64,000 nt of DNA from NCBI GenBank assembly GCA_934276735.1, contig CAKQTG010000001.1, forward strand, positions 418,203-482,202, written 5' to 3'. Under the pieces are notes generated by a model. The model made no database searches, was not told the DNA's origin, and saw only the letters and a list, made by a program, of their open reading frames with translations. A program made the translations under genes and the position numbers. This DNA comes from an uncultured Alphaproteobacteria bacterium. GTDB taxonomy: Bacteria > Pseudomonadota > Alphaproteobacteria > Rs-D84. The stretch's first letter is position 1, and each line of letters opens with the position of its first letter. Positions 7,112-64,000 of this stretch are shown here, piece by piece.

Positions 7112-8524
7112 ATGCTAGAATATTTACGTAATGCAGCAGATAAACCAGTGGCAAAAGTTTTAATTGCCATATTGGCGTTTTCTTTTGTTGGTTGGGGTGT
7201 CGCCGAATGGGTTTTCGGGGGCAGTCGTGGTGATAACACATTGGTTCGCGTTGGTGATTCTGAGGTCACAATGCAACAGTATAATGCCGAACGCTCGCGC
7301 CAGTTGGCCCAGATGACGCGTGAACAACAGCGTGCGGTCTATACCGACGCGCAAACGGGTGCGGCATTTACGGCACGCGTGTTGGGTGACCTGTCAACCC
7401 AGCGTATGGCAGAAAACCGCGCAAATGATTTGGGCTTTGTCGTGACTGATGCACGTATCGCGCGTGAAATTCGTGAATTCCCAGAATTTCAACAAAATGG
7501 AAAGTTTTCAGCATATCTGTTTGATGTCGTGTTGGCAAATTCCGGCTATACCGAGGCCCAGTTTGCCGATGTCCTGCGTAATCAAATTTTGCGTGGGTAT
7601 GCGATTGGCGCGATTGGGATAAAAATGCCAGTGCCTGGGTTCGCGGCGACGGCGACATATAATGCGCGCTATGGCCAGAAACAGATTGATTTCGCAACGG
7701 TAAAATTTTCTGATTTCAAGGTTGGACAACCAACAGACGCGCAATTACAGGAATATTACACCGCGCATCCGCAAATCGTCCCAGAAAGTCGCACTGTTTC
7801 GTATGTCTTGATTCCAGCAGAAATGAGCAAACCTGACGCCTATGACGCAGGTTTGGCCATCGCGCAAAAGGTTGAAGATGACATCATCGCAGGCGAAACG
7901 ATGGCAACGGCGGCCAAACGTCACGGTGCGAAATACGTATCGCTGGGCGCGTTCACGGCGGATAAACGTCCAGCAGACGCAATTATGAACGACAAAATGG
8001 TTGCCAAGATTTTTGATATGGAGGTCGGCCTGGAAAGCGAACTGACTGAAACCAAACAGGGTTTTGTAATTGTTCGCGTGGACAAGGTTGCGCCCCAGCA
8101 TAACGCAGAATTTGCATCTGTGAAAAAGAATCTGGTTGCCGATTGGCAGCGTGACGCCCAACGCAAACAGGCATACGTTCGTGCAAACGAAATCTTGGTT
8201 GATTTGAACAAGACGGGCAAATTGGCGAATAAAAAATCTGTGACTGTGTCGCGCACATCGGGCGCACCGACAGATGTTCTGGTTGCGGCATTCCGTGCGC
8301 CGGCCGGTGATAATTCCATTGTTGATGGTGCGGACGCGTTCTATGTTCTGCATACTGGGGAATTTGTTGCGCCAAAAATGGACGCGAAAAAAATGGCCGA
8401 TGTTCGCAAAGAATTACAGAACACACAATCGCGCGAAATTACAGACGATTATAATGCGTTCTTGATTCGCACGTATCCGGTCAAAATAAATCACAAGGTT
8501 TATGATAAATTCTTTGCAAAATAA
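7112..8524 (+). CDS. ppiD: Periplasmic chaperone / peptidyl-prolyl isomerase PpiD-like (SurA-family), N-terminally membrane-anchored
   Basis: N-terminal TM segment (VAKVLIAILAFSFVGWGV), then a SurA/PpiD-like chaperone domain. 470 aa. Good RBS. Confidence 0.65.
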   Translation: MLEYLRNAADKPVAKVLIAILAFSFVGWGVAEWVFGGSRGDNTLVRVGDSEVTMQQYNAERSRQLAQMTREQQRAVYTDAQTGAAFTARVLGDLSTQRMAENRANDLGFVVTDARIAREIREFPEFQQNGKFSAYLFDVVLANSGYTEAQFADVLRNQILRGYAIGAIGIKMPVPGFAATATYNARYGQKQIDFATVKFSDFKVGQPTDAQLQEYYTAHPQIVPESRTVSYVLIPAEMSKPDAYDAGLAIAQKVEDDIIAGETMATAAKRHGAKYVSLGAFTADKRPADAIMNDKMVAKIFDMEVGLESELTETKQGFVIVRVDKVAPQHNAEFASVKKNLVADWQRDAQRKQAYVRANEILVDLNKTGKLANKKSVTVSRTSGAPTDVLVAAFRAPAGDNSIVDGADAFYVLHTGEFVAPKMDAKKMADVRKELQNTQSREITDDYNAFLIRTYPVKINHKVYDKFFAK

Positions 8525-8525
8525 T

Positions 8526-8549
8526 AAAACGCCCACTTGGGCGTTTTTT
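8526..8549 (+). terminator. Rho-independent terminator (aaaacgcccacttgggcgtttttt)
   Basis: Hairpin plus T-run directly after the ppiD stop. Confidence 0.7.
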
Positions 8550-8563
8550 AGTCGGGGGCGTAT

Positions 8564-9124
8564 ATGACAACAAAATGGGCGGATGGCAAAAATCGATGCG
8601 CGTGGGCAAATCCGAATAATCCAGAATACATAAAATATCACGACACTGAATGGGGGCGCACCGTGCATGATGATGCGCGGCTGTTTGAAATTCTGGTGCT
8701 GGAATCGTTTCAGGCGGGCCTGTCGTGGGAATGCATTTTGGCAAAGCGTGAAAACTTTCGCTGCGCATTTGATGGATTTGATGCACGCCGCATTGCCGAA
8801 TATACAGACAGCGATGTCAGCCGATTGATGGCGGATGCGGGGATTGTTCGCAATCGATTAAAGATTTGCGCGACAATAAAAAATGCGCGCGTATTTTTGG
8901 AAATCGTAAGCGAATTTGGTTCGTTTGACGCGTACATTTGGCGCGTGACGGGCGGGGCGGTAATCCGAGAGGTGGGCCGCACACATTCAGAAATTTCGGA
9001 CGCGATTTCCCGCGACCTGCGCCGGCGCGGTATGCGATTTGTTGGCACAACAATCATCTATGCATACTTGCAGGCCATCGGCGTTATCAACGGCCACAGC
9101 GCAGATTGCTGGTGCACAAAATAA
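8564..9124 (+). CDS. tag: DNA-3-methyladenine glycosylase I
   Basis: Tag-family sequence (KNRCAWANPNNPEYIKYHDTEWGRTVHDD…LEIVSEFGSFDAYIW…) with the Zn-binding C/H residues conserved. Confidence 0.85.
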   Translation: MTTKWADGKNRCAWANPNNPEYIKYHDTEWGRTVHDDARLFEILVLESFQAGLSWECILAKRENFRCAFDGFDARRIAEYTDSDVSRLMADAGIVRNRLKICATIKNARVFLEIVSEFGSFDAYIWRVTGGAVIREVGRTHSEISDAISRDLRRRGMRFVGTTIIYAYLQAIGVINGHSADCWCTK

Positions 9125-9193
9125 TCCCGCCCCGAATAGGGCTATATGTGCGATACGCGAGATTGAAGGGTTTAAAGCGAATCTTAATTTGCG

Positions 9194-10099
9194 TCAATTA
9201 CTCTGTTTTTTCTTTTGAATAACAATCATTATATGTGCACTTAATGATAACATATCTGGACACTCGCAAATTGAAAAATGCAAATCCAACCATTTTTTAT
9301 ATTGGGTTTTATTTTTTGCAATTTCATTAAATTCTTTATGTGCGTTTTGATTGGGCCATTCAAGAGCAACCTGATGTAATAATTTTGTGTTTTTTGCTGT
9401 TTTTAAAACTAAATCTTTCAATTCACTTGGCCAATAAAAATGTGCATACGAACAACCAACGAACCAATTATCATCACCGGTTTGTGCTAGTAAATTCGTT
9501 TCTTGCCAAAAATTTTTTTCGTTTTTATATCCATATGTTTTCAAATATCCTTTAAAATCTTTAACACATAAATTTAACACCGCCGGTCTTGCCATAACAG
9601 ATATAAATATCGGCGCCCCTGGTTTTGATACACGAACTAATTCTTTAATTGCTTTCTTTCTATCTTGTTCTGTTCGTAAATGTGATAACGGACCACCAAT
9701 ACATAATACCATATCAAAAGAATTATCTTTATATGGTAATTCTGTGATAGACCCTAAATCAACAGAATCAATAAATTTACCAACACGATATTGTTTGATT
9801 TTTCTTTTTGCTAATTCTAATTCTTTATCAGATATGTCCAGCAACGTCATATGATGACCTTGTTTTGCTAAATCTATTGTATACCGTCCAGGTCCGCCAC
9901 CTGCATCCAATATTTTCATACCCTTTTTCAAATACTTTTTATAAAAATATTCTGTTGTTTGAAATTCCAGCATATGTGCTGCATTTTTTGTTGTTCTGGT
10001 GAATTCTTTTTCTGCGGATTCATTATAAAAATCTTTTACGGAAACACCATTTTTGCGTTTCTTTGGTTTAACAAATAATGATTTAATGAACTGAAACAC
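9194..10099 (-). CDS. Class I SAM-dependent methyltransferase, encoded in a sharply AT-rich segment (probably acquired horizontally)
   Basis: SAM-binding motif ILDAGGGPGRYTIDLA. Start set to GTG at 10099, 8 nt after a strong aggaaggag RBS, with a tataat -10 box upstream. The track ORF start at 10180 is a TTG without an RBS. Local GC is far below the flanking genes. Confidence 0.65.
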   Translation of the reverse strand: MFQFIKSLFVKPKKRKNGVSVKDFYNESAEKEFTRTTKNAAHMLEFQTTEYFYKKYLKKGMKILDAGGGPGRYTIDLAKQGHHMTLLDISDKELELAKRKIKQYRVGKFIDSVDLGSITELPYKDNSFDMVLCIGGPLSHLRTEQDRKKAIKELVRVSKPGAPIFISVMARPAVLNLCVKDFKGYLKTYGYKNEKNFWQETNLLAQTGDDNWFVGCSYAHFYWPSELKDLVLKTAKNTKLLHQVALEWPNQNAHKEFNEIAKNKTQYKKWLDLHFSICECPDMLSLSAHIMIVIQKKKQSN

Positions 10100-10240
10100 G
10101 ATTTTTCTCCTTCCTCGTATTATACCACAGAAAGTTCGAAAATGATAATTTTCTGCAATTTTCCCAAACCGAACTTTCAAACTCGGTAAAAATATTACAA
10201 AACGAAAGAAATCTTGCCCCGATTGGCAAGTTTTGTTTTA

Positions 10241-10577
10241 GCAGCTGATTCCCTCGGCACGGTTGTGCCTGTGGGGCATTCGTATGACGTTCACGGCACT
10301 ACGTTTGTGAACATCAACTCATAGTCGAACCAACTGGTTCTGCCACCAGAAAACCCAACCAAAAATTAAACCGGCGCAAGGCCGGTTAAATTTTATATTT
10401 TATCGGTAGGCAGCTGATTCCCTCGGCACGGTTGTGCCTGTGGGGCATTCGTATGACGTTCACAGCACTGTTGTTTGTGAACGTCAACTCATTGTCGAAC
10501 CAAATGACTGGCGTCATGTGGTCGAACTGCGTTGACCACGACCAAAAATTAAACCGGCACAAGGCCGGTTAAATTTT
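10241..10577. repeat. Two tandem ~169-bp direct repeats (10241-10409 and 10410-10577) abutting the 3' end of tRNA-Gln. Each copy begins with a degenerate copy of the tRNA 3' region and ends with the same terminator-like hairpin (aaaccggcgcaaggccggttaaatttt).
   Basis: The copies are about 85-90% identical on direct reading. Both start gcagctgattccctcgg (compare the tRNA 3' region ggcagctggattcgaacc) and end ...ccaaaaattaaaccggc(g/a)caaggccggttaaatttt. Confidence 0.8.
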
Positions 10578-10651
10578 TGGTTGGGGCAGCTGGATTCGAA
10601 CCAACACTGACGGAGTCAGAGTCCGGAGTTCTACCGTTAAACTATGCCCCA
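10578..10651 (-). tRNA. tRNA-Gln (anticodon CTG)
   Basis: The reverse complement folds as a cloverleaf. It has U1-A72 like the E. coli tRNA-Gln alignment, anticodon loop CUCUGAC, T-arm GGTTCGAATCC, and an encoded CCA. Confidence 0.85.
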
Positions 10652-10737
10652 ATGCGTCGCGTATTATATAACGCCTTTTTCTGCTTTGCAATCAAAATTT
10701 GCGCTTTTGGTGGCAAGATAGGCATTTTTATGATATT

Positions 10738-11271
10738 ATGCCACCTATGAATATTCCGTTGGACAATATAATCAATTTTCACTTGGTGCGGACGCAATGT
10801 CACATAGATTGCTTGAATTATTTCGCGGGTTTGCTGGGCGCGGCGTTTCCGGCCCACGATTGTGATAAATTTACAGAACCGTATCAAACCGGATACGCAT
10901 ATCGCAACTATATGGCATATCACCCAGATATGAAAATGTTGCCCCAGCATTTGGAACTGTACAGGCGCGTTCACGACGAACATCATCAGCTGCAAGCGCA
11001 CCATATTGGTTCGTGGGACGATGTGCGCCAAATCCCAAAAATCGTTTTAACAGAAATGGTCTGTGATTGGCACAGCGCGAATTTTGAACAACTGGAAATC
11101 CAGAAATCATCAGAATACGAAAATGTTCGGGCGTTCTTTGGCCGTGTGATGGCGCCGTTGTCGTGGACCGATGCACAGCGTGAATTTATCTTGAATCTGG
11201 TTGATGAATTGGCTAAACGCACAGATTCTGGGGCATTGCGTGCAATTTGGGCACCTGCGCTGGAATTATGA
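10738..11271 (+). CDS. Hypothetical protein (His-rich HDEHHQLQAHH segment); start uncertain
   Basis: The track ORF begins at a TTG at 10699. The first in-frame ATG is at 10738. No clear RBS and no recognised domain. Confidence 0.45.
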   Translation: MPPMNIPLDNIINFHLVRTQCHIDCLNYFAGLLGAAFPAHDCDKFTEPYQTGYAYRNYMAYHPDMKMLPQHLELYRRVHDEHHQLQAHHIGSWDDVRQIPKIVLTEMVCDWHSANFEQLEIQKSSEYENVRAFFGRVMAPLSWTDAQREFILNLVDELAKRTDSGALRAIWAPALEL

Positions 11272-11318
11272 AATCAAACCCATAGATTTTACATACCGCT
11301 GCGCCGCATAATGCGGAT

Positions 11319-12458
11319 ATGGAGACGAGAAAAATATTTTATGCGCTGGCGGTGGCAATGCCATTGGTGGCTGCAAACAATGCGTATGCCTGTACGGGTA
11401 TCACATTGAAATCCGACGACGGCGGTGTCGTTGTCGCCCGAACAATAGACTGGTCGCGCGAAGAAATGGATAATATCTATGTTGTTGTCCCACGCGGTCA
11501 AACCCAGACGGCGATTTTGCCAGACAATGCGCCCGGCGGTATGCAATATACTGCAAAATACGGATACGTCGGGCTGGGTATGGAACAGGCAGAATTTATC
11601 GTAGATGGCACGAATGAGGCGGGTTTGTCTGCGGCGTTGTTCTATTTCCCGAAATATGGAAAATACAAGCCCTATGATGAGGCCCTGGCCGGGCAATCCA
11701 TTGGCGATTTGCAGTTGGTGTCGTGGGTGCTGGCAAATTGCGCCACAATCGATGATGTGCGAAATGCACTGCAAAATGTGCGCGTGATAAATATTGATTC
11801 GCGTGCCGATACGGTTCACTGGCGTTTTACCGAGAAAAATGGTCGCCAAATGATTCTGGAAATCGTTGATGGAAACATGAATTTCTATGACAGTCCGATG
11901 GGCGTTTTAACCAACGCGCCGGGATTTTCGTGGCAGACGACGAATCTGAATAACTATGTGAATTTAATCCCTGGGACCGCCGGGCCGATAAATCTGAACG
12001 GCGTAAAGTTATCTGCGTTCGGTTCAGGCAGTGGTTTCCACGGTCTGCCGGGGGATTTTACACCGCCGTCGCGATTCGTTCGCGCGTCGTTTTTGTCGTC
12101 GTATTCACTGAAACAGAAAACCGCATTTGATTCCGCAATGCAGGCGTTTCATATTCTGAATAATTTTGATGTGCCAACCGGTGTCCAGTTCGCTGTTGGT
12201 GCGGCACCAAACAATATGCCGTCGGCGACCCAGTGGACAATCGCAACAGATATGAAAAATATGGTGATTTATTACCATACTATGTATGACCGCACGGTTC
12301 GTTCAATTGATATGTCGGCAATTGACTTTGGCACGGTTGCGTTCCAGACGCACCCGCTGGACACGAACAAGCGTCCGACAATTATGCCGGTGCAAATTGA
12401 TTACAGTGCCCCGGTTGTGGTGGAAACAGACGTGACCGTGACCGAGTTTATGGAATAA
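11319..12458 (+). CDS. Choloylglycine hydrolase / penicillin V acylase family protein (Ntn hydrolase, linear amide C-N hydrolase), secreted
   Basis: Signal peptide followed immediately by the nucleophile Cys (…NNAYAC TGITLKSDDGGVVVARTIDW…), as expected for the CBAH/PVA family. Confidence 0.7.
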   Translation: METRKIFYALAVAMPLVAANNAYACTGITLKSDDGGVVVARTIDWSREEMDNIYVVVPRGQTQTAILPDNAPGGMQYTAKYGYVGLGMEQAEFIVDGTNEAGLSAALFYFPKYGKYKPYDEALAGQSIGDLQLVSWVLANCATIDDVRNALQNVRVINIDSRADTVHWRFTEKNGRQMILEIVDGNMNFYDSPMGVLTNAPGFSWQTTNLNNYVNLIPGTAGPINLNGVKLSAFGSGSGFHGLPGDFTPPSRFVRASFLSSYSLKQKTAFDSAMQAFHILNNFDVPTGVQFAVGAAPNNMPSATQWTIATDMKNMVIYYHTMYDRTVRSIDMSAIDFGTVAFQTHPLDTNKRPTIMPVQIDYSAPVVVETDVTVTEFME

Positions 12459-12540
12459 AAAATATTTGTCTTTGATTTATTATAAAAACGGCTATAATCC
12501 TTGGGTCATTTGATGAAAAACAACCCAAGGAGAAAGCATA

Positions 12541-13779
12541 ATGAAAATCAAACCATTTGCCGGCGTTCGTCCCCCAAAAGATTTAGCGGCCCAGGTCGCA
12601 TCGCGTCCATATGACGTTCTGAATTCTGTGGAGGCCAAGCAAGAGGCCGGTGAAAAATCACTGTTGCATATTATCAAACCAGAAATTGATTTTGACCCGA
12701 TTGCCGATGAACATTCACAGGCTGTCTATGACAAAGCGGTTGAAAATTTCAAACTGTGGCAGGAACGTGGCTGGCTGGTCCAGGACCCAAAAGAAATGTA
12801 TTACATCTATGCCCAGACAATGGACGGTCGCACCCAGTATGGTTTGGTCGCGGCGGCAAATGTTGATGACTATATGTCGGGCAAAATTAAAAAGCACGAA
12901 TTGACGCGCAAAGACAAAGAAGATGACCGTATGATTCACGTTCGTATCCAAAACGCGAATATTGAACCGGTGTTTTTTGCGTATCCTGATGTTGATGAAA
13001 TGAACAAAATTGTTTCGGACTGGGTTGCGTCGCACGCCCCAGAATATGACTTTGTCGCAGACGATGGTTTTGGCCACACGTTCTGGGCAATTACAGATGA
13101 CGCGGTCAATGCACGCATAACCGAAATATTCAAAAATATCCCGGCGATGTATGTTGCCGATGGTCACCACAGGACCGCCGCCGCCGCCCGTGTTGGCGCA
13201 GAAAAACGCGCACAAAATCCGAATCACACAGGAAACGAAGAATACAACTATTTCTTGGCGGTGATATTCCCAGAATCACAACTGCACGTTATTGACTATA
13301 ACCGCGTGGTGCGTGATTTGAACGGGCTGACGCCGGACGAATTCTTGGCACGCCTGGGCGAATCGTTTGATGTTGTTGATATGGGCACAGAAATTTACAA
13401 GCCGGCAAAACTGCATAACTTTGGTATGTATCTGAACGGCCATTGGTACAGTCTGACGGCGAAAGCGGGCACGTATAACGACAACGACCCGATTGGTGTT
13501 CTGGACGTGACAGTGCTGTCAAATTTGGTGTTTGATAAAATCTTGAACCTGGGCGATTTGCGCACCAGCAAGCGTATTGATTTCGTTGGTGGAATTCGCG
13601 GATTGGCCGAATTGCAAAAGCGCGTTGATTCGGGCGAAATGGTTGCGGCGTTTGCGCTGTATCCTGTCACCATGCGCCAGATTATTGACATCGCCGATAC
13701 TGGCAACATTATGCCACCCAAGACAACGTGGTTTGAACCAAAGTTGCGCAGTGGTTTGGTAATACATAAACTGTCATAA
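12541..13779 (+). CDS. DUF1015 family protein
   Basis: N-terminus MKIKPFAGVRPPKDLAAQVASRPYDVL is characteristic of DUF1015. Strong RBS aaggagaaagcataATG. Confidence 0.7.
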   Translation: MKIKPFAGVRPPKDLAAQVASRPYDVLNSVEAKQEAGEKSLLHIIKPEIDFDPIADEHSQAVYDKAVENFKLWQERGWLVQDPKEMYYIYAQTMDGRTQYGLVAAANVDDYMSGKIKKHELTRKDKEDDRMIHVRIQNANIEPVFFAYPDVDEMNKIVSDWVASHAPEYDFVADDGFGHTFWAITDDAVNARITEIFKNIPAMYVADGHHRTAAAARVGAEKRAQNPNHTGNEEYNYFLAVIFPESQLHVIDYNRVVRDLNGLTPDEFLARLGESFDVVDMGTEIYKPAKLHNFGMYLNGHWYSLTAKAGTYNDNDPIGVLDVTVLSNLVFDKILNLGDLRTSKRIDFVGGIRGLAELQKRVDSGEMVAAFALYPVTMRQIIDIADTGNIMPPKTTWFEPKLRSGLVIHKLS

Positions 13780-30958: not shown

Positions 30959-31035
30959 GCGCCCTTAGCCCAGCTGGATAGAGCATCGGATTTCTAATCC
31001 GCAGGTCGCAGGTTCGAATCCTGCAGGGCGCGCCA
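30959..31035 (+). tRNA. tRNA-Arg (anticodon TCT)
   Basis: GCGCCCTTAGCCCAGCTGGATAGAGCATCGGATTTCTAATCCGCAGGTCGCAGGTTCGAATCCTGCAGGGCGCGCCA, nearly colinear with E. coli argU. Anticodon loop TTTCTAA. Confidence 0.9.
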
Positions 31036-31081
31036 AGATAAATGCGCAGCCACGGGAATTGCACGTTGCGGGGGGAATTTT

Positions 31082-31207
31082 GATTCGAACCTGCGACAGG
31101 GAGCGGTTTGACCCGACGCAAAAAGGCGGAAACGCGCCGGTCCACCGTAGTTTTAACGGAGGTGGATTTTGCAAGGGCGGCGTCAGCCAGTCCTGCAGGG
31201 CGCGCCA
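31082..31207. repeat. tRNA-Arg fragment copies. An inverted 16-nt copy of the T-arm (gattcgaacctgcgac, 31082-31097) and a direct 17-nt copy of the tRNA 3' end (tcctgcagggcgcgcca, 31191-31207) look like att-site-like scars.
   Basis: Exact matches to tRNA-Arg positions 31004-31019 (reverse complement) and 31019-31035 (direct). Confidence 0.75.
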
Positions 31208-31239
31208 GTTTTTTTTATTTTGGGCAAGTGGGGACAAAA

Positions 31240-49358: not shown

Positions 49359-49526
49359 ATTGGTGTAAAGAATAGCAATCTATTTTGCACCCTGCAAGTA
49401 ATATTTGCATCGGCAAAAAATCGTGTTTTTGGAAAAATCAAGCCCTTTATTTAAAAAACATTGCTTGCGCCCGTCTTTTTCCGGGGGGCGATTTGTGATA
49501 AAATAGTATCCAGGGAAAACGGAGAG

Positions 49527-50627
49527 ATGGAAAAATATCTGAATCAGATTTTGTCTGGTGATTGTATCGAGGTTATGCGTGGCATACCAGATGCGTCGGT
49601 TGATGCTGTCTTTGCCGATTGTCCGTATAATTTGCAATTGGGGGCGAAAACACTATATCGACCCGAAGATCAAACCGCCGCACGCGCTGTGCGTGACGCA
49701 TGGGATACGTTTGACAGCCCAGCGGCATATGATGAATTTACGCGTGCCTGGATGCGTGAGTGTCAGCGTATATTAAAACCAGATGGTGCTATGTGGGTCA
49801 TCGGCAGTTATCATAATATCTTTCGCGTTGGCGCAATTTTACAGGATTTGGGTTTCTGGATTTTAAATGACATTGTATGGGTCAAGACAAATCCAATGCC
49901 GAATTTCCGTGGCACGCGTTTTACAAACGCGCACGAAACACTGATTTGGGCAACCCCGCGCAAGACCGGTAAATACACATTTAATTACGAAACGATGAAA
50001 AAACTGAACGGCGGAAAACAAATGCGTTCAGATTGGAATATCAATATTTGCCTGGGCGAAGAACGCGTCAAAGACACCAATGGCAAAAGTTTGCACAATA
50101 CGCAAAAACCGATGGATTTATTACGCCGTGTGATACTGGCGTCAACCAAACAGGGCGATGTCATACTTGATCCATTTTTGGGCAGTGGAACAACCGCCGC
50201 CGCGGCCAAAGAATTGGGACGTAATTTTATTGGGATAGAGCGCGAGCAAGCCTATGTGGACGCTGCACGGGAACGTGTTGCCGCGGTAAAACCGGTTGAT
50301 TTGTCGGATATAGAGGTTGCAATTCCGAAACGGGCCGAGGTACGTGTTGCATTTCGTGAATTGCTGGAAGCGGGATTATTGTATGTCGGGCAGACATTGG
50401 TCAGTCCGCGTGGCGAACGCGTTATGATTACACGCGATGCACAGTTGGCACATACCCTGCACGGCAAGGCGTCAATTCACGTTATGGCGGCGCGACTGCA
50501 ACACAGTGTTAGTTTCAATGGTTGGGATTATTGGTCGGCAGAAAAGCGTGATGGGACGCTGGTCCCGATTGACGAGTTGCGCAAATACGTGCGTGATATC
50601 AAACGTGATATTAAACAAGCCGCCTGA
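49527..50627 (+). CDS. ccrM: Cell-cycle-regulated DNA adenine (GANTC) methyltransferase CcrM-like
   Basis: N6-MTase motifs (DCPY catalytic-motif variant in AVFADCPYNLQ; SAM-binding DPFLGSGTT), plus the characteristic ~80-aa C-terminal extension. Start moved to ATG 49527 (RBS aacggagag). Confidence 0.8.
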   Translation: MEKYLNQILSGDCIEVMRGIPDASVDAVFADCPYNLQLGAKTLYRPEDQTAARAVRDAWDTFDSPAAYDEFTRAWMRECQRILKPDGAMWVIGSYHNIFRVGAILQDLGFWILNDIVWVKTNPMPNFRGTRFTNAHETLIWATPRKTGKYTFNYETMKKLNGGKQMRSDWNINICLGEERVKDTNGKSLHNTQKPMDLLRRVILASTKQGDVILDPFLGSGTTAAAAKELGRNFIGIEREQAYVDAARERVAAVKPVDLSDIEVAIPKRAEVRVAFRELLEAGLLYVGQTLVSPRGERVMITRDAQLAHTLHGKASIHVMAARLQHSVSFNGWDYWSAEKRDGTLVPIDELRKYVRDIKRDIKQAA

Positions 50628-53906: not shown

Positions 53907-54284
53907 ATGAAACAAATATCAACTCTGGGCTTGGTAGTGCTCGTGATATCGTGCCTGGGGGTGACGCCCGCAATGGCAGCAAACCTGGAGGGGTGCGAGC
54001 CATCCACAGAAAAACCGTGTTGTTGTCCAGATGAACCGGTAACGTACACTTGCCGTGGTTGTCCGCCCGGTTGGTACAAGGCAAGCGTGGTTGGAGTTGG
54101 GAAAGTGTGCGTGCCTGATTCTGGGACCACCAATAATATTCCAAGTGATAAAAAAGGTTATCTCTATGCCGAGGTCTGCACCGGCCAGCAATGCTTTACG
54201 GCCACTAGCAGTGAGGATGCTGCTGCCCGCGCTGATAAAGGGGAAGCATGTTTTTGCCCTGCTGCTTTAGGAGAAAAAAAATGA
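53907..54284 (+). CDS. Small secreted Cys-rich protein (125 aa; 12 Cys in the mature part; CRGCPPGWYKAS motif)
   Basis: Start moved to ATG 53907 (RBS aagggggaacgaaaaATG; MKQISTLGLVVLVISCLGVTPAMA signal peptide). Confidence 0.6.
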   Translation: MKQISTLGLVVLVISCLGVTPAMAANLEGCEPSTEKPCCCPDEPVTYTCRGCPPGWYKASVVGVGKVCVPDSGTTNNIPSDKKGYLYAEVCTGQQCFTATSSEDAAARADKGEACFCPAALGEKK

Positions 54285-54583
54285 AAAAATATTTTTTTGT
54301 ATGTGCTGTAATGGCACTGGTATCCGGGGCAGACGCCGCCGCCCCAACGTGTACAGTTACAGCGTCCGGATCTTATATGTCATGCAAGCCGGGATATTAT
54401 TATGATAGTTTTTTAATTGGAGACACAGGGAAAACGTGCAATCCGTGCCCGCAGTTTGATGATGCCATCAGCGCGGATAAAAATATTGACGGGGTAACGT
54501 CCTGCTATTTGCCCGCCGGAACAACAGGGTCCGATAGCACCGGCACATTTAAATATACATCTGATTGTCCTTATACCAATTAA
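54281..54583 (+). CDS. Small secreted Cys-rich protein (100 aa; 6 Cys; CKPGYYYDS motif), translationally coupled to the preceding gene (ATGA overlap)
   Basis: ATG 54281 overlaps the upstream TGA stop. RBS taggagaaaaaaaATG. Signal peptide MKKYFFVCAVMALVSGADA. Confidence 0.6.
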   Translation: MKKYFFVCAVMALVSGADAAAPTCTVTASGSYMSCKPGYYYDSFLIGDTGKTCNPCPQFDDAISADKNIDGVTSCYLPAGTTGSDSTGTFKYTSDCPYTN

Positions 54584-54589
54584 AACAGT

Positions 54590-55200
54590 TCGCCACTTTA
54601 TTGGCACCTATTTTCCCCCCGCCCCGAGAGAACGGGGGGAACAAATATAAGAGAGCAGGGGGCAATGAAAAGTGAGCAAGTGACAGAGTGATAAAGTGAT
54701 ATAGTTTTAGAATAGAGAACAATTCATGTGTCGCCTGCAGACCAAGGTCTTCGCCGCCAGGCCCCCGCAAAATCGCAAGATTTTGTGGGTGGACAAAGGC
54801 AGAAATAGGAACTAAGAAATTACTTTTGCTCATTGTTGCACGATGTTCGTAAAATATGGCCCCCAACCACACACCATCGTCACCCCGACCCGGGCCCCGC
54901 AAAATCGCAAGATTTTGTGGGTGGTTCCCGGAGGGGAACTTGGTCCGCAACTAAGACATAAACTATGTTCGTAAAATATGGCCCTCAACCACACACAACC
55001 GTCATACCGGCGCAGGCCGGTATCCATTGCCCCGCAGGGACCACCACTACCCCGTCCACTACGTGGACACCCCTTCGCCAGCGAAGGGGAACTTAGACCG
55101 CGACGATAAAAACAAGCGCGCCGATGGCGCGCTTCATTGCTCTCTGCTCTCTGCTCTCTGCGCATTGCTCTCTTGCATGACGAACCGCGGTTCTCGTCCG
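54590..55200. repeat. Mosaic intergenic repeat array (~610 bp). 54920-55200 is an inverted copy of the 27222-27470 composite.
   Basis: By reverse-complement comparison, ccgcaactaagacataaactatgttcgtaaaatatggccctcaaccacacacaaccgtcataccggcgcaggccggtatccattgccccgcagggaccaccactaccccgtccactacgtggacaccccttcgccagcgaaggggaacttagaccgcgacgataaaaacaagcgcgccgatggcgcgcttcattgctctctgctctctgcgcattgctctcttg is about 95% identical to 27222-27470. Confidence 0.85.
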
Positions 55201-55243
55201 ACAGGGCAAAAATAAAAACCACCAAAATGGTGGTTTATATTTT

Positions 55244-55328
55244 TGGTGGCCCTGGTCGGACTCGAACCGACACTCCTTGCAGAACTTGATTTTGAGTCAA
55301 GCGCGTCTACCAATTCCGCCACGGGGCC
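55244..55328 (-). tRNA. tRNA-Leu (anticodon CAA), type II with long variable arm
   Basis: Reverse complement GGCCCCGTGGCGGAATTGGTAGACGCGCTTGACTCAAAATCAAGTTCTGCAAGGAGTGTCGGTTCGAGTCCGACCAGGGCCACCA. Anticodon loop CTCAAAA. Confidence 0.9.
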
Positions 55329-62498: not shown

Positions 62499-62530
62499 AA
62501 AAACGCCCCACCCGGGGCGGTTTTTTATTA
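62499..62530 (+). terminator. Rho-independent terminator (aaaaaacgccccacccggggcggtttttt)
   Basis: Hairpin plus T-run after rpsU. Confidence 0.7.
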
Positions 62531-62990
62531 GAGCGCAATGCGCAGAGAGCGATTAAAGTTCCCCTCTGGCCAGAGGGGTGGCACGTAGTGCCGGGGTGTC
62601 GGTTTCTCAGGGAGCAGAGTGTAGAGAGCAGAGTGCAATGAAAATGTCCGCCGATGGCGGACGACTCCAATGACCTGGATCCTGGGGTCAAGCCCCAGGA
62701 TGACGAGAGTAAAAAACGCGCTAAGTTCCCCTCCGGTGGAGGGGTGTCCGCTAGGACGGGGTGGTCTTGAGAGTGCGTAATGTTGGTATATGTATAAAAA
62801 GACCACCTCCCCGCTACGCGGTACTCCTCCATGGAACCACCCACAAAATCTGACGATTTTGCGGGGCCCGGAGGAGGAGAACTTGCCCCGCGCCGGGAAC
62901 GAAATAAGGTTCCCCTCTGGCCAGAGGGGTGGCGCAACGCGCCGGGGTGTCGGCATTGCTCTCTGCTCTCTGCGCGTTGCACTCTAATAA
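62531..62990. repeat. Mosaic intergenic repeat array (~460 bp) between rpsU and the DUF805 gene (modules M1, M2 three times, M3, M5)
   Basis: gttcccctctggccagaggggtggc (twice), cctggatcctggggtcaagccccaggatgacgagagtaaaaaacgcgctaagttcccctccggtggaggggtg, ccacccacaaaatctgacgattttgcggggcccggaggaggagaacttg. All have copies at 39900-40160. Confidence 0.85.
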
Positions 62991-63534: not shown

Positions 63535-64000
63535 CCAGAATTTATTTCTCAGAGAGCAGAGCGCAATGACAAGTGAGTAAGTGACAGAGTGATAAAGTGA
63601 TTTAGTTTTAGAATAGAAAACTTAAAAACTTGTCATTCCTGCGCAGGCAGGAATAGGGACTATACAGTGCGAGCGGACGCGAGCCATACACACGCAATCG
63701 CGGATTTATTATTGGGGACCATGTTTTACGAACATTGTGCAACAATGGGCGGGAGTAATTTCTTAGACCCTATTCCTGCCTGCGCAGGAATGACAAGGGC
63801 GGTGTATTTGTGTTTATTTTATGACCATAGTTTATGTCTTGGCCGCGAGCTAAATTCCCCTCTGGGGAGCCGGGGTGGTGCGCAGCACCGGGGTGTCGGA
63901 TTCTCAGAGAGCAGAGCGCAATGAAAATGTCCGCCGATGGCGCGCTTGTTTTTTACCGTTGCGGTGTGAAAATCCCCTTCGCTGGCGAAGGGGTGTCCAC
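63535..64000. repeat. Mosaic intergenic repeat array running to the window end (M6, inverted-repeat module cattcctgcgcaggcaggaatagg…, ttgtgcaacaatgggcgggagtaatttcttagaccctattcctgcc, M1, M2-variant ccccttcgctggcgaagggg)
   Basis: Near-identical copies of these modules are at 39545-39830, 53490-53760, 54680-54730 and 27222-27330. Confidence 0.85.

Follow-up and report, generated by a model that had tools for sequence, protein, structure and literature searches.

A tRNA-anchored array of hairpin-rich modules and a low-GC methyltransferase cassette in an Enterousia-like alphaproteobacterium

Results

Organization of the tRNA-Gln(CTG) locus

The window analysed here is a stretch of 64,000 nucleotides from an uncultured alphaproteobacterium (contig CAKQTG010000001.1, assembly GCA_934276735.1), and its subject is the 1.45-kb variable region between a tRNA-Gln(CTG) gene and tag, in which two tandem non-coding repeats, hereafter modules, are followed by a single methyltransferase (MT) gene. 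The sequence is identical to scaffold_5 of ENA metagenome assembly ERZ28614899. The closest matches of the window genes are metagenome-assembled genomes (MAGs) named Candidatus Enterousia or 'uncultured Alphaproteobacteria'; Enterousia belongs to the order Rs-D84 and comprises bacteria from the gut of farm animals, with genomes of less than about 1 Mb (PMC12306168). The gene order is grpE, tpiA, a ppiD-like gene, tag, MT, the two repeats, tRNA-Gln(CTG), a DUF5662 gene on the plus strand, a choloylglycine-hydrolase-family gene and a DUF1015 gene. The tRNA gene (10578-10651, minus strand; ARAGORN; Rfam RF00005, 62.9 bits) is intact, encodes its CCA and has a promoter, TTGCAA-17-TATAAT (10691-10663, minus strand; promoter scan). 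It anchors the array, which begins at the first base past the CCA. On the distal side of MT lies tag (8564-9124, plus strand), whose terminator hairpin GCCCTATTCGGGGC (9129-9142, strand given as '.') forms the conserved distal border of the variable region. For comparison, syntenic loci were gathered via MT homologues, via DUF1015 and via a DNA pattern derived from the repeat; the approximately 25 related loci are labelled with L-numbers (e.g., L008, L098 and L103).

The two direct repeats, of about 169 bp each, occupy 10410-10577 and 10241-10409. An earlier reading of the letters alone (the sequence-only reading) had placed them 3′ of the minus-strand tRNA-Gln, and ARAGORN, Rfam and the repeat comparison confirm this arrangement. 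Three blocks are in register, of 60 nt (98% identity), 34 nt (91%) and 37 nt (97%), at spacings of 169-183; the middle hairpin segments are unrelated, and overall identity is 75%. Tandem Repeats Finder, run on 8000-12500, reported nothing, because the middles of the units are not homologous.

Read in the tRNA direction, the tRNA-proximal module 1 (10410-10577, minus strand, non-coding; nhmmer E=5e-57; 87% identity to L100_m3 and L099_m1) comprises the terminator hairpin H1a (stem 10552-10570), the H2a hairpins, GGTTCGAC, H3a, CGAATGCCCCACAG, H4a and GAGGGAATC, after which stands AGCTGCC (10409-10415, minus strand), copied in part from the tRNA 3′ end. Where module 1 meets module 2, a spacer, TACCGATAAAATAT (10395-10408, minus strand), takes the place of CCAACCA in this copy, and we refer to this arrangement as the type II junction. 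The distal module 2 (10241-10394, minus strand, non-coding; 94.9% identity to L098_m2) has the architecture of module 1 but another H2 hairpin (H2b), and its tRNA 3′ copy, again after GAGGGAATC, is truncated to AGCTGC (10241-10246, minus strand).

On the plus strand each unit starts with GCAGCTGATTCCC, the reverse complement of GGGAATCAGCTGC, where the corresponding tRNA sequence is GAATCCAGCTGCCCCAACCA, and ends with the hairpin AACCGGC(R)CAAGGCCGGTT and a T-run. In the tRNA direction the unit accordingly starts with the hairpin AACCGGCC-TTG(C/T)G-CCGGTT between A- and T-runs and ends in ...GTGCCGAGGGAATCAGCTGC(C), to be compared with ...GGTTCGAATCCAGCTGCCCCAACCA at the end of the tRNA; the right-end sequences of units are ..GAGGGAATCAGCTGCCCCAACCA or ..GCACAACCA. 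Both copies of the hairpin, previously proposed as the terminator closing each repeat, score as terminators, and they do so on both strands (9 terminator-like sites found vs 2.2 expected). With a GC content of ~0.48, the modules do not deviate from the host composition (0.48).

The methyltransferase cassette

Beyond module 2, the MT cassette starts with TAAAACAAAA and a 'native-type' terminator hairpin, CTTGCCAATCGGGGCAAG (10213-10230; the whole start 10213-10240, minus strand), which follows the tRNA CCA directly in L009, L011 and L103. The adjoining promoter/operator segment (10100-10212, minus strand; promoter scan) has two TTCGAA-centred inverted motifs, a promoter TTATCA-18-TATAAT with an upstream TG (10148-10119, minus strand; -35 at 10148-10143, -10 at 10124-10119) and a ribosome-binding site AGGAAGGAG (10107-10115, minus strand). 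This segment is kept upstream of variable cargo in L008, L009, L022, L103 and L015, and a remnant of it is found in L100. MT itself (9194-10099, minus strand) is a 906-bp gene with a GTG start, encoding 301 amino acids, so that every part listed in the sequence-only reading, a low-GC gene for an S-adenosylmethionine (SAM)-dependent methyltransferase with a tataat -10 box, a ribosome-binding site and a GTG start, is present.

The protein matches Methyltransf_25 in Pfam (PF13649, 69.5 bits against a cut-off of 27, 4e-19; PF08241, 65.6) and carries the invariant SAM motif L64-D-A-G-G-G-P-G-R72 (DAGGGPGR). Its AlphaFold model has a pLDDT of 90, and the top Foldseek matches are all methyltransferases, the nearest structures being TM1389 (uncharacterised), CmoM (a tRNA methyltransferase) and the natural-product methyltransferases TleD, RebM and MitM. 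The NCBIfam equivalogs all stay under their cut-offs (MenG_MenH_UbiE, 53 bits vs 158; CmoM, 46 vs 366). By profile and predicted fold, MT is a class I SAM-dependent methyltransferase. Its neighbours in relatives are kinase-like (APH), GNAT, NUDIX and P-loop genes, and MT may thus be a small-molecule-modifying accessory gene.

The cassette closes with a degenerate right end (9143-9193, minus strand), in which TCTCGCGTATCGCACA (9162-9147) matches the right-end motif GCTCGCGAATTGCACA of the relatives. In the window this right end is truncated: ..CAACCA is missing and the cassette is fused to the tag terminator. The gene-cassette right end (GCTCGCGAATTGCACA..GCACAACCA plus hairpin) can be found in L008, L009, L010, L011, L015 (twice), L017, L022 and L103. 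In L103, MT is followed by the right end ...TCGGCTCGCGAATTGCACAGATAGCACAACCA, a terminator hairpin and a second copy of the promoter segment, and the same right end closes a cassette with a P-loop open reading frame (ORF) in both L008 and L009. In sequence it resembles an ancient, since diverged duplicate of the tRNA stretch from T-loop to CCA (GGTTCGAAT...CCCCAACCA).

A small ORF was also seen in these right ends. It lies on the strand opposite the tRNA, starts from TGGTTG, the reverse complement of CAACCA, and reads M-C-x-x-C-N-S-R-(T/A)-(D/E)-L-..-G-Q-E-I-..-K-D-K-L over 26-37 amino acids in nine diverged copies, among them L008 3437-3547, L009 4804-4890, L103 2230-2328 and 3482-3589, L022 6272-6415, and L015 1467-1622 and 2208-2381. 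We considered it as a recombinase N-terminus and rejected this, as a search of the protein collection found no homologue. The frame may encode a genuine micro-protein or arise as a by-product where a DNA site is conserved; in the right ends, conservation probably concerns the DNA, because the modules keep the same motif out of frame.

The methyltransferase cassette resembles low-GC Enterousia

It is evident that MT differs in composition from its host. The GC content of MT is 0.306, compared with 0.43-0.56 in the 52 other long ORFs, which makes it the sole low-GC ORF among 53, and its GC content at third codon positions is 0.202 vs 0.512±0.047 (minimum 0.397). The windowed GC and codon-usage comparison that the sequence-only reading had proposed thus marks MT as foreign. 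For the METHYLTRANSFERASE (MT) cassette, MT homologues (60-91% identity) are found only in Enterousia-like genomes; the next matches, at 48% identity or less, are in Nanoarchaeota and bacteria of the candidate phyla radiation. A phage or plasmid neighbourhood, for which that reading had proposed to look, did not emerge: tblastn of MT gave at most 31% identity to plasmids and at most 25% to phages, so no mobile-element neighbourhood is indicated.

The MT homologues stand in at least six contexts, several of them beside tRNA genes. In L103-L105 the order is tRNA-Gln, hairpin, promoter segment and MT; in L009 it is the same with a P-loop ORF cassette between, in L008 three genes lie between, and in L003 the homologue is beside tRNA-Tyr. 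L103 is a low-GC congener; its hairpin-promoter-MT block stands immediately next to tRNA-Gln, and a degenerate copy of the tRNA end closes it. Over a single block of 1037 contiguous bp, window 10235-9206 and L103 are 84.4% identical, and the L103 MT, with a GC content of 0.33 vs 0.34 in its own contig, is native in composition. On these comparisons, the MT cassette of the window matches low-GC Enterousia in composition, and in the latter the same cassette directly adjoins tRNA-Gln. Synonymous divergence (dS) between the window and L008 is 0.64 for MT and 1.57 for DUF1015. MT is missing from L098 and L099, close relatives of high GC content, whose arrays run straight into tag. Composition, dS and presence/absence agree, and together they indicate that the MT cassette was imported from a low-GC Enterousia.

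In L100, the corresponding slot (1-1484) holds a Panacea-domain (SocA-like) antitoxin, a putative toxin (weakly PemK-like) and a HaeIII-family restriction endonuclease, which by these assignments makes it a slot that also takes defence genes. Where the last module meets the cassette, the window and L100 have the junction GGGAATCAGCTGC|TAAAACAAAA in common, with ~100 nt at 95% identity. Since this junction is shared despite the different cargo, cargo appears to have been exchanged distal to an older junction. MT had been taken for the surviving cargo of the element that left the two repeats. That it is foreign accessory cargo in a variable slot holds; its attribution to the repeats does not, the junction shared with L100 showing MT to belong to a separate distal cassette.

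Module number varies among related loci

Copy number of the modules ranges from 0 to 3 across the relatives. Three loci (L009, L011 and L103) have no module and no tRNA-end repeat, and the tRNA-Gln CCA abuts the 'native' hairpin CTTGCCC..GGGCAAG. L008 has one module, with a perfect 19-nt repeat, AATCCGTGTACCCCAACCA, that matches L008's own tRNA variant. L012 has one module plus a short second unit, L099 two modules and a fragment, and L098 and L100 three modules each; in all four the tRNA-end repeat is a perfect 15-nt CAGCTGCCCCAACCA, lying at 160-512 nt. Relative to the module-free sites, the modules appear in this comparison as insertions, and the number and content of units evidently vary between related species and lineages. 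The degenerate copy of the tRNA 3′ segment noticed earlier in each repeat of the window is not a chance resemblance, because the homologous modules in L012, L098, L099 and L100 hold the perfect repeat; the weak copies of the window thus share their origin with genuine tRNA 3′-end copies. It is also clear that the same repeats with a native-like MT are not common to all relatives, as module numbers vary and MT is absent from L098 and L099 and replaced in L100; the empty sites that the sequence-only reading would have had us look for exist both for the modules and for MT.

The variant junction between the two units of the window, AGCTGCC|TACCGATAAAA..., recurs in four species, twice within L098. 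In its full type II form (AGCTGCC|TACCGATAAAATAT|hairpin) it is found in L098 (twice), L099 and L100. A local decay of the tRNA-end copy would not explain this recurrence, and duplication and exchange inside the arrays therefore contribute to their growth and shuffling as well. In L099, a truncated module is joined to the tag terminator sequence. Matching modules of different species are 87-95% identical vs 82-84% for the flanking protein genes and 75% for the window's own pair. By these alignments, the arrays are mosaic and have partly grown by internal duplication.

The distal edge shows a peculiarity of its own. The DNA of tag (window 8564-9143) is 94-95% identical to L098 and L099, whereas the neighbouring genes reach only 80-84%, which suggests that this edge of the variable region either has recombined recently or is under unusually strong constraint.

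Modules form a conserved, mosaic family

We aligned 11 modules from six genomes (alignment A2). All share a fixed architecture of junction, H1, H2, GGTTCGAC, H3, CGAATGCCCCRCAG, H4 and GAGGGAATCAGCTGC, and at every hairpin position two to four alternative sequences occur and are combined mosaically. Among the 32 pairs counted, 96.3% of the cells are paired, compared with 31-43% when the 3′ partners are slid. Compensatory changes on both sides are present in 12 pairs, and the observed covariation score was reached by none of 500 shuffles. In the helix that encloses H4, one pair has changed independently from C-G to U-A and from C-G to A-U. The covariation shows that the module hairpins are kept by selection, and on this alignment the modules are a conserved, hairpin-rich, mosaic family, not simply decayed attachment-site (att) scars of larger islands. 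The earlier proposal of repeated insertion at the tRNA 3′ end thus stands in part: the relatives do have zero to three modules with tRNA-end repeats, but the units are conserved, structured modules that have also been duplicated internally.

Two other identities for the modules were tried and rejected. Decayed tRNA pseudogenes are not indicated, since no tRNA covariance-model match was obtained at E<=10 and the putative T-arm motifs are unpaired on inspection. Miniature inverted-repeat transposable elements do not fit either: terminal inverted repeats are missing, the repeat is 14-20 nt of tRNA instead of 2-10 bp, and copies lie only beside tRNA genes.

Similar inserts at other tRNA genes

Mismatch searches and an nhmmer profile detected no further module copy in the window, just weak hairpin-only matches near tRNA-Leu. 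A homologous module is, however, present at tRNA-Tyr in L003, so that the family is not restricted to tRNA-Gln. In L002/L003, tRNA-Tyr is followed by a 234-bp module, which matches the tRNA-Gln module profile (E=1e-7), and then by a 15-nt copy of the tRNA-Tyr end; behind it lie a truncated second module and an MT homologue. The L003 module has ~85 nt in common with the tRNA-Gln insert of the same genome (L022). Within the window, an insert of 155 bp separates tRNA-Arg(TCT) (30959-31035) from a perfect 17-nt repeat of that tRNA's 3′ end, TCCTGCAGGGCGCGCCA (31191-31207); this insert is not homologous to the tRNA-Gln modules. Across the compared loci, 9 of the 23 tRNA genes have a downstream copy of their own end, always 135-512 nt away. 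The tRNA-end repeats are 14-20 nt long, are taken from the adjoining tRNA and end at CCA(+A).

Several further observations were made at tRNA genes of the window. In the tRNA-Arg region (30959-31220), the insert contains an inverted T-arm copy, GATTCGAACCTGCGAC, and the repeat is followed by a T-run and an APH-family phosphotransferase gene. Past tRNA-Leu(CAA) (55244-55328, minus strand), an H1-like terminator hairpin, AAACCACCATTTTGGTGGTTT, precedes ~1 kb (54250-55243) without a Pfam-recognisable ORF, a stretch made of internal direct repeats (54738/54870 and 54840/54962); an exact tRNA-Leu end copy of at least 11 nt was not found downstream of this tRNA. A second dispersed mosaic family of intergenic repeats with paired hairpins (AGAGAGCAGAGCGCAATGA... 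and TAAAGTTCCCCTCTGGCCAGAGGGGTGGCAC...GTGCCGGGGTGTCGG) occurs at 54650-54720, 55131-55173, 62530-62659, 62905-62985, 63551-63621 and 63851-63942, with several copies near tRNA-Leu and downstream of tRNA-Ala.

Other genes of the window

Two genes outside the variable region deserve mention. The DUF1015 protein (12541-13779) is 71-81% identical to proteins of Bacteroidales (Alistipes, Rikenellaceae and Muribaculaceae) from the same gut habitats and 87-92% identical to those of other Enterousia, which is nearly the same closeness, and this suggests that DUF1015 has moved between phyla. The other, at 49461-50627, has a normal composition and encodes an N6/N4 DNA methylase that includes a RAMA domain (PF01555, 2e-64; PF18755).

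Discussion

We favour, with a probability of roughly 0.55, the reading that the region is a cassette array anchored on the 3′ end of tRNA-Gln(CTG), whose units enter by site-specific recombination and are remodelled by unequal and homologous recombination, and whose MT was acquired from a low-GC Enterousia. Read along the tRNA, every unit would open with a bidirectional terminator, a G+C hairpin that directly follows the final 14-20 nt of the tRNA, copied in full or in part, and would close with a conserved right end, after which the next tRNA-end copy follows. As the MT cassette has its own right end, it adds a unit to the two modules, so that the window would contain three: two gene-less modules (10410-10577 and 10241-10394) and one gene cassette (~9143-10240). 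Entry would take place between a tRNA-3′-like core on the incoming DNA and the tRNA end or a copy of it in the array, with the recombinase supplied in trans, and the leading hairpin would restore a terminator to the tRNA. Recombination between the conserved borders of the units, both unequal and homologous, could then duplicate, shuffle, swap and delete units, and the MT cassette would have reached this 48%-GC genome from a low-GC congener by one of these routes.

Much of what defines a tRNA-integrating island can be recognized here: an intact tRNA 3′ end site, direct repeats of the tRNA end (perfect, 15-19 nt, in the relatives) and unoccupied sites in relatives. Deviant composition is seen in the MT cassette and not in the two modules, and neither the 1.45-kb region nor the 20 other window ORFs tested with Pfam contain an integrase or its remnant. 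The logic of the array matches that of tRNA-proximal additive islands, from which it would depart by its miniature units, by its conserved, structured, gene-less units and by having no integrase that we could find. Such islands arise by serial integration in the tycheposons of Prochlorococcus (bioRxiv 10.1101/2020.12.28.424599). Common to the two are streamlined genomes, variable material beside a tRNA, elements separated by partial copies of that tRNA, high diversity at the tRNA-proximal end, adaptive or defensive cargo, and integrase-less remnants. Tycheposons, however, are kb-sized and encode a tyrosine recombinase and usually replication genes, whereas the array consists of ~170-bp gene-less modules or ~1-kb single-gene cassettes, has no recombinase in the approximately 25 loci, and keeps its small units structured instead of decaying. 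Cis-mobilizable elements (CIMEs), known from the Streptococcus ICESt1/ICESt3 family, are kb-sized derivatives of an integrative and conjugative element (ICE) and are mobilised by the integrase of that ICE. They too are non-autonomous units with att-like direct repeats and no recombination genes, arranged in tandem at one attachment site; the array differs in its site, the tRNA 3′ end, in its far smaller units, and in that no parent element or integrase was identified. Hairpin-rich mosaic intergenic repeats are also known as bacterial interspersed mosaic elements (BIMEs) and repetitive extragenic palindromes (REPs) in enterobacteria and as rhizobial intergenic mosaic elements (RIMEs), which are dispersed over the genome, often by terminators. 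The modules share with BIMEs/REPs and RIMEs the hairpin-rich intergenic design, the mosaic combination of alternative motifs and the frequent position beside terminators, but lie only 3′ of tRNA genes and have tRNA-end copies as their boundaries.

Several results weigh against this reading of the array. Pfam detected no integrase, transposase, Cas1 or reverse transcriptase in 20 window ORFs, the 1.45-kb region has no integrase ORF, and no integrase or remnant was seen in the approximately 25 related loci; the loss of an integrase, which the sequence-only reading took for granted, therefore remains an assumption. In the related loci, no tRNA-end repeat is more than 512 nt away from its tRNA. 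An excised or viral form with joined ends was not found, either by IMG/VR scans that used the right ends of modules and of gene cassettes and the H1a hairpin as queries and returned unrelated coding matches or nothing, or by blastn against INPHARED phages. The window's own tRNA-end copies are just 6-7 nt plus GAATC, and the conserved hairpins have no demonstrated role in recombination. A recombinase that requires attP and attB to be identical is hard to reconcile with near-identical module parts beside the Gln and the Tyr repeats of one genome. Finally, cargo differs distal to the junction common to the window and L100, for which homologous exchange accounts equally easily.

A bolder form of the cassette array, which we regard as tentative, would be an integron-like system undescribed so far, in which the tRNA 3′ end acts as attI, the ~170-bp modules perhaps fold as single strands like attC, and single-gene cassettes carry their own promoters, with both kinds of unit inserted, duplicated and exchanged at tRNA-tail copies by a recombinase in trans or by host functions alone. 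Integrons and clusters of attC sites lacking an integrase (CALINs) have much in common with the array: ordered small units, often with one gene, each closed by a structured element resembling a recombination site, gene-less units, variable cargo and integrase-less arrays. The array differs in having no intI, attI or Pc, an own promoter/operator for each cassette, and its anchor on the tRNA 3′ end. In a comparison made by eye, the attC pattern of R″-L″...L′-R′ boxes (RYYYAAC...GTTRRRY) was not recognized in the boundary elements; the H1a arms read ATTTAAC...GTTTAAT, the second of which does not fit GTTRRRY.

Clearly less probable than the favoured reading, though still to be taken seriously, is that no dedicated recombinase was ever involved. 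A one-off duplication of the tRNA 3′ end and its terminator could have furnished unit borders (hairpin, promoter segment and right end) that serve as portable homology arms, and RecA-type exchange, unequal crossing-over and slippage would have done the rest after uptake of DNA from other Enterousia. Much of the comparative evidence is what this would predict: modules that are mosaic with alternative alleles at each segment, a type II junction duplicated inside arrays, cargo that differs distal to a junction 95% identical in the window and L100, deletions that fuse a unit to the tag terminator in both L099 and the window, and the missing recombinase gene among the window ORFs tested and the related loci. 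The identity of tag between species, 94-95% compared with 82-84% for neighbouring genes, likewise hints at local recombination. What such exchange leaves unexplained is the exact placement after the CCA with a 14-20-nt copy of the adjoining tRNA, be it Gln, Tyr or Arg, and the match of the L008 repeat to that genome's own tRNA variant; a 15-nt repeat is, moreover, short for RecA-dependent exchange.

The strength of the covariation also raises the possibility that the hairpins are selected in RNA, that is, that the modules are functional RNAs such as tandem small RNAs, RNAs of the tRNA trailer or 3′ external transcribed spacer (3′-ETS) type, or stacks of terminators or insulators, with copy number varying as in a tandem gene family. 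Through the tRNA-end copies, the RNA could then acquire a 3′ end like that of a tRNA, or an anti-tRNA 5′ end if the other strand is the one transcribed. Single-strand folding of the modules gives z-scores of -3 to -6, the modules are more conserved between species than the flanking genes, and each has a proper terminator at its plus-strand end. We nevertheless hold a primary RNA role to be unlikely. The arrays of the window, L098 and L100 contain no sigma-70-like promoter on either strand, each module opens with a terminator in the tRNA direction, and the counts of G·U vs A·C pairs favour neither strand. Tandem small-RNA genes on the plus strand in particular were rated unlikely, given arrays free of promoters in three species and no strand signal from wobble pairs. 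In Rfam, searched at gathering and E-value thresholds, the tRNA alone was matched, all other matches having E ~1, far under the threshold. Some congeners live without modules, and an RNA function would in any case be compatible with an origin by insertion.

A further comparison is offered by casposons. These transposons depend on Cas1, insert at the 3′ ends of tRNAs and create target duplications of 14-15 bp; tandem and miniature derivatives of them have been described. The array has in common with them insertion at a tRNA 3′ end with a ~15-bp duplication. The tRNA-end copies might accordingly be true target-site duplications that result from staggered cutting or target priming, be it by a casposon-like enzyme or by retro-insertion of an RNA ending in a terminator hairpin, and the modules would be non-autonomous elements. 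The repeat does always come from the adjoining tRNA, measures 14-20 nt and ends at CCA(+A), homologous module parts stand at two tRNAs in one genome, and on the opposite strand the unit extends exactly to the U-tail of the terminator. Even so, we consider such an origin improbable. An inverted-repeat search of the modules returned internal hairpins only and no terminal inverted repeats, no Cas1, PolB or reverse transcriptase is present among the window ORFs tested, and the conserved GGGAATC beside the repeat resembles an att sequence carried by the element. The host lineage is not known to carry casposons. The small size of the genomes, below 1 Mb, speaks against it as well (PMC12306168).

That the AT-rich MT block is a mis-assembly joining low-GC and high-GC strains in a metagenome assembly (L001/L108) through repeats common among Enterousia, which do flank the block, can be rejected, because both junctions were assembled independently in two other samples (L109 and L110, one identical and one 98.7%, running from module 2 through the cassette, MT, tag and ppiD), and the exact MT protein is found on at least five contigs.

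Public contigs are seen to end inside module arrays (L015, 1-263; L109 and L110, whose position 1 is window 10270). Module repeats break short-read assemblies, and the arrays with their cargo are probably under-represented in MAGs; they might also mislead island predictors that need an integrase. The locus represents a compact and recurrent way of parking variable genes beside tRNAs, with MT in the window and toxin-antitoxin and restriction enzyme or kinase-like genes in relatives. If the modules are recombination sites, they would belong to a new cassette system, and if they are RNAs, to a new structured RNA family tied to tRNA genes. Should the integron-like form of the array exist, it would be the main route by which the sub-megabase genomes of Enterousia gain genes, among them genes for defence and for the modification of small molecules.

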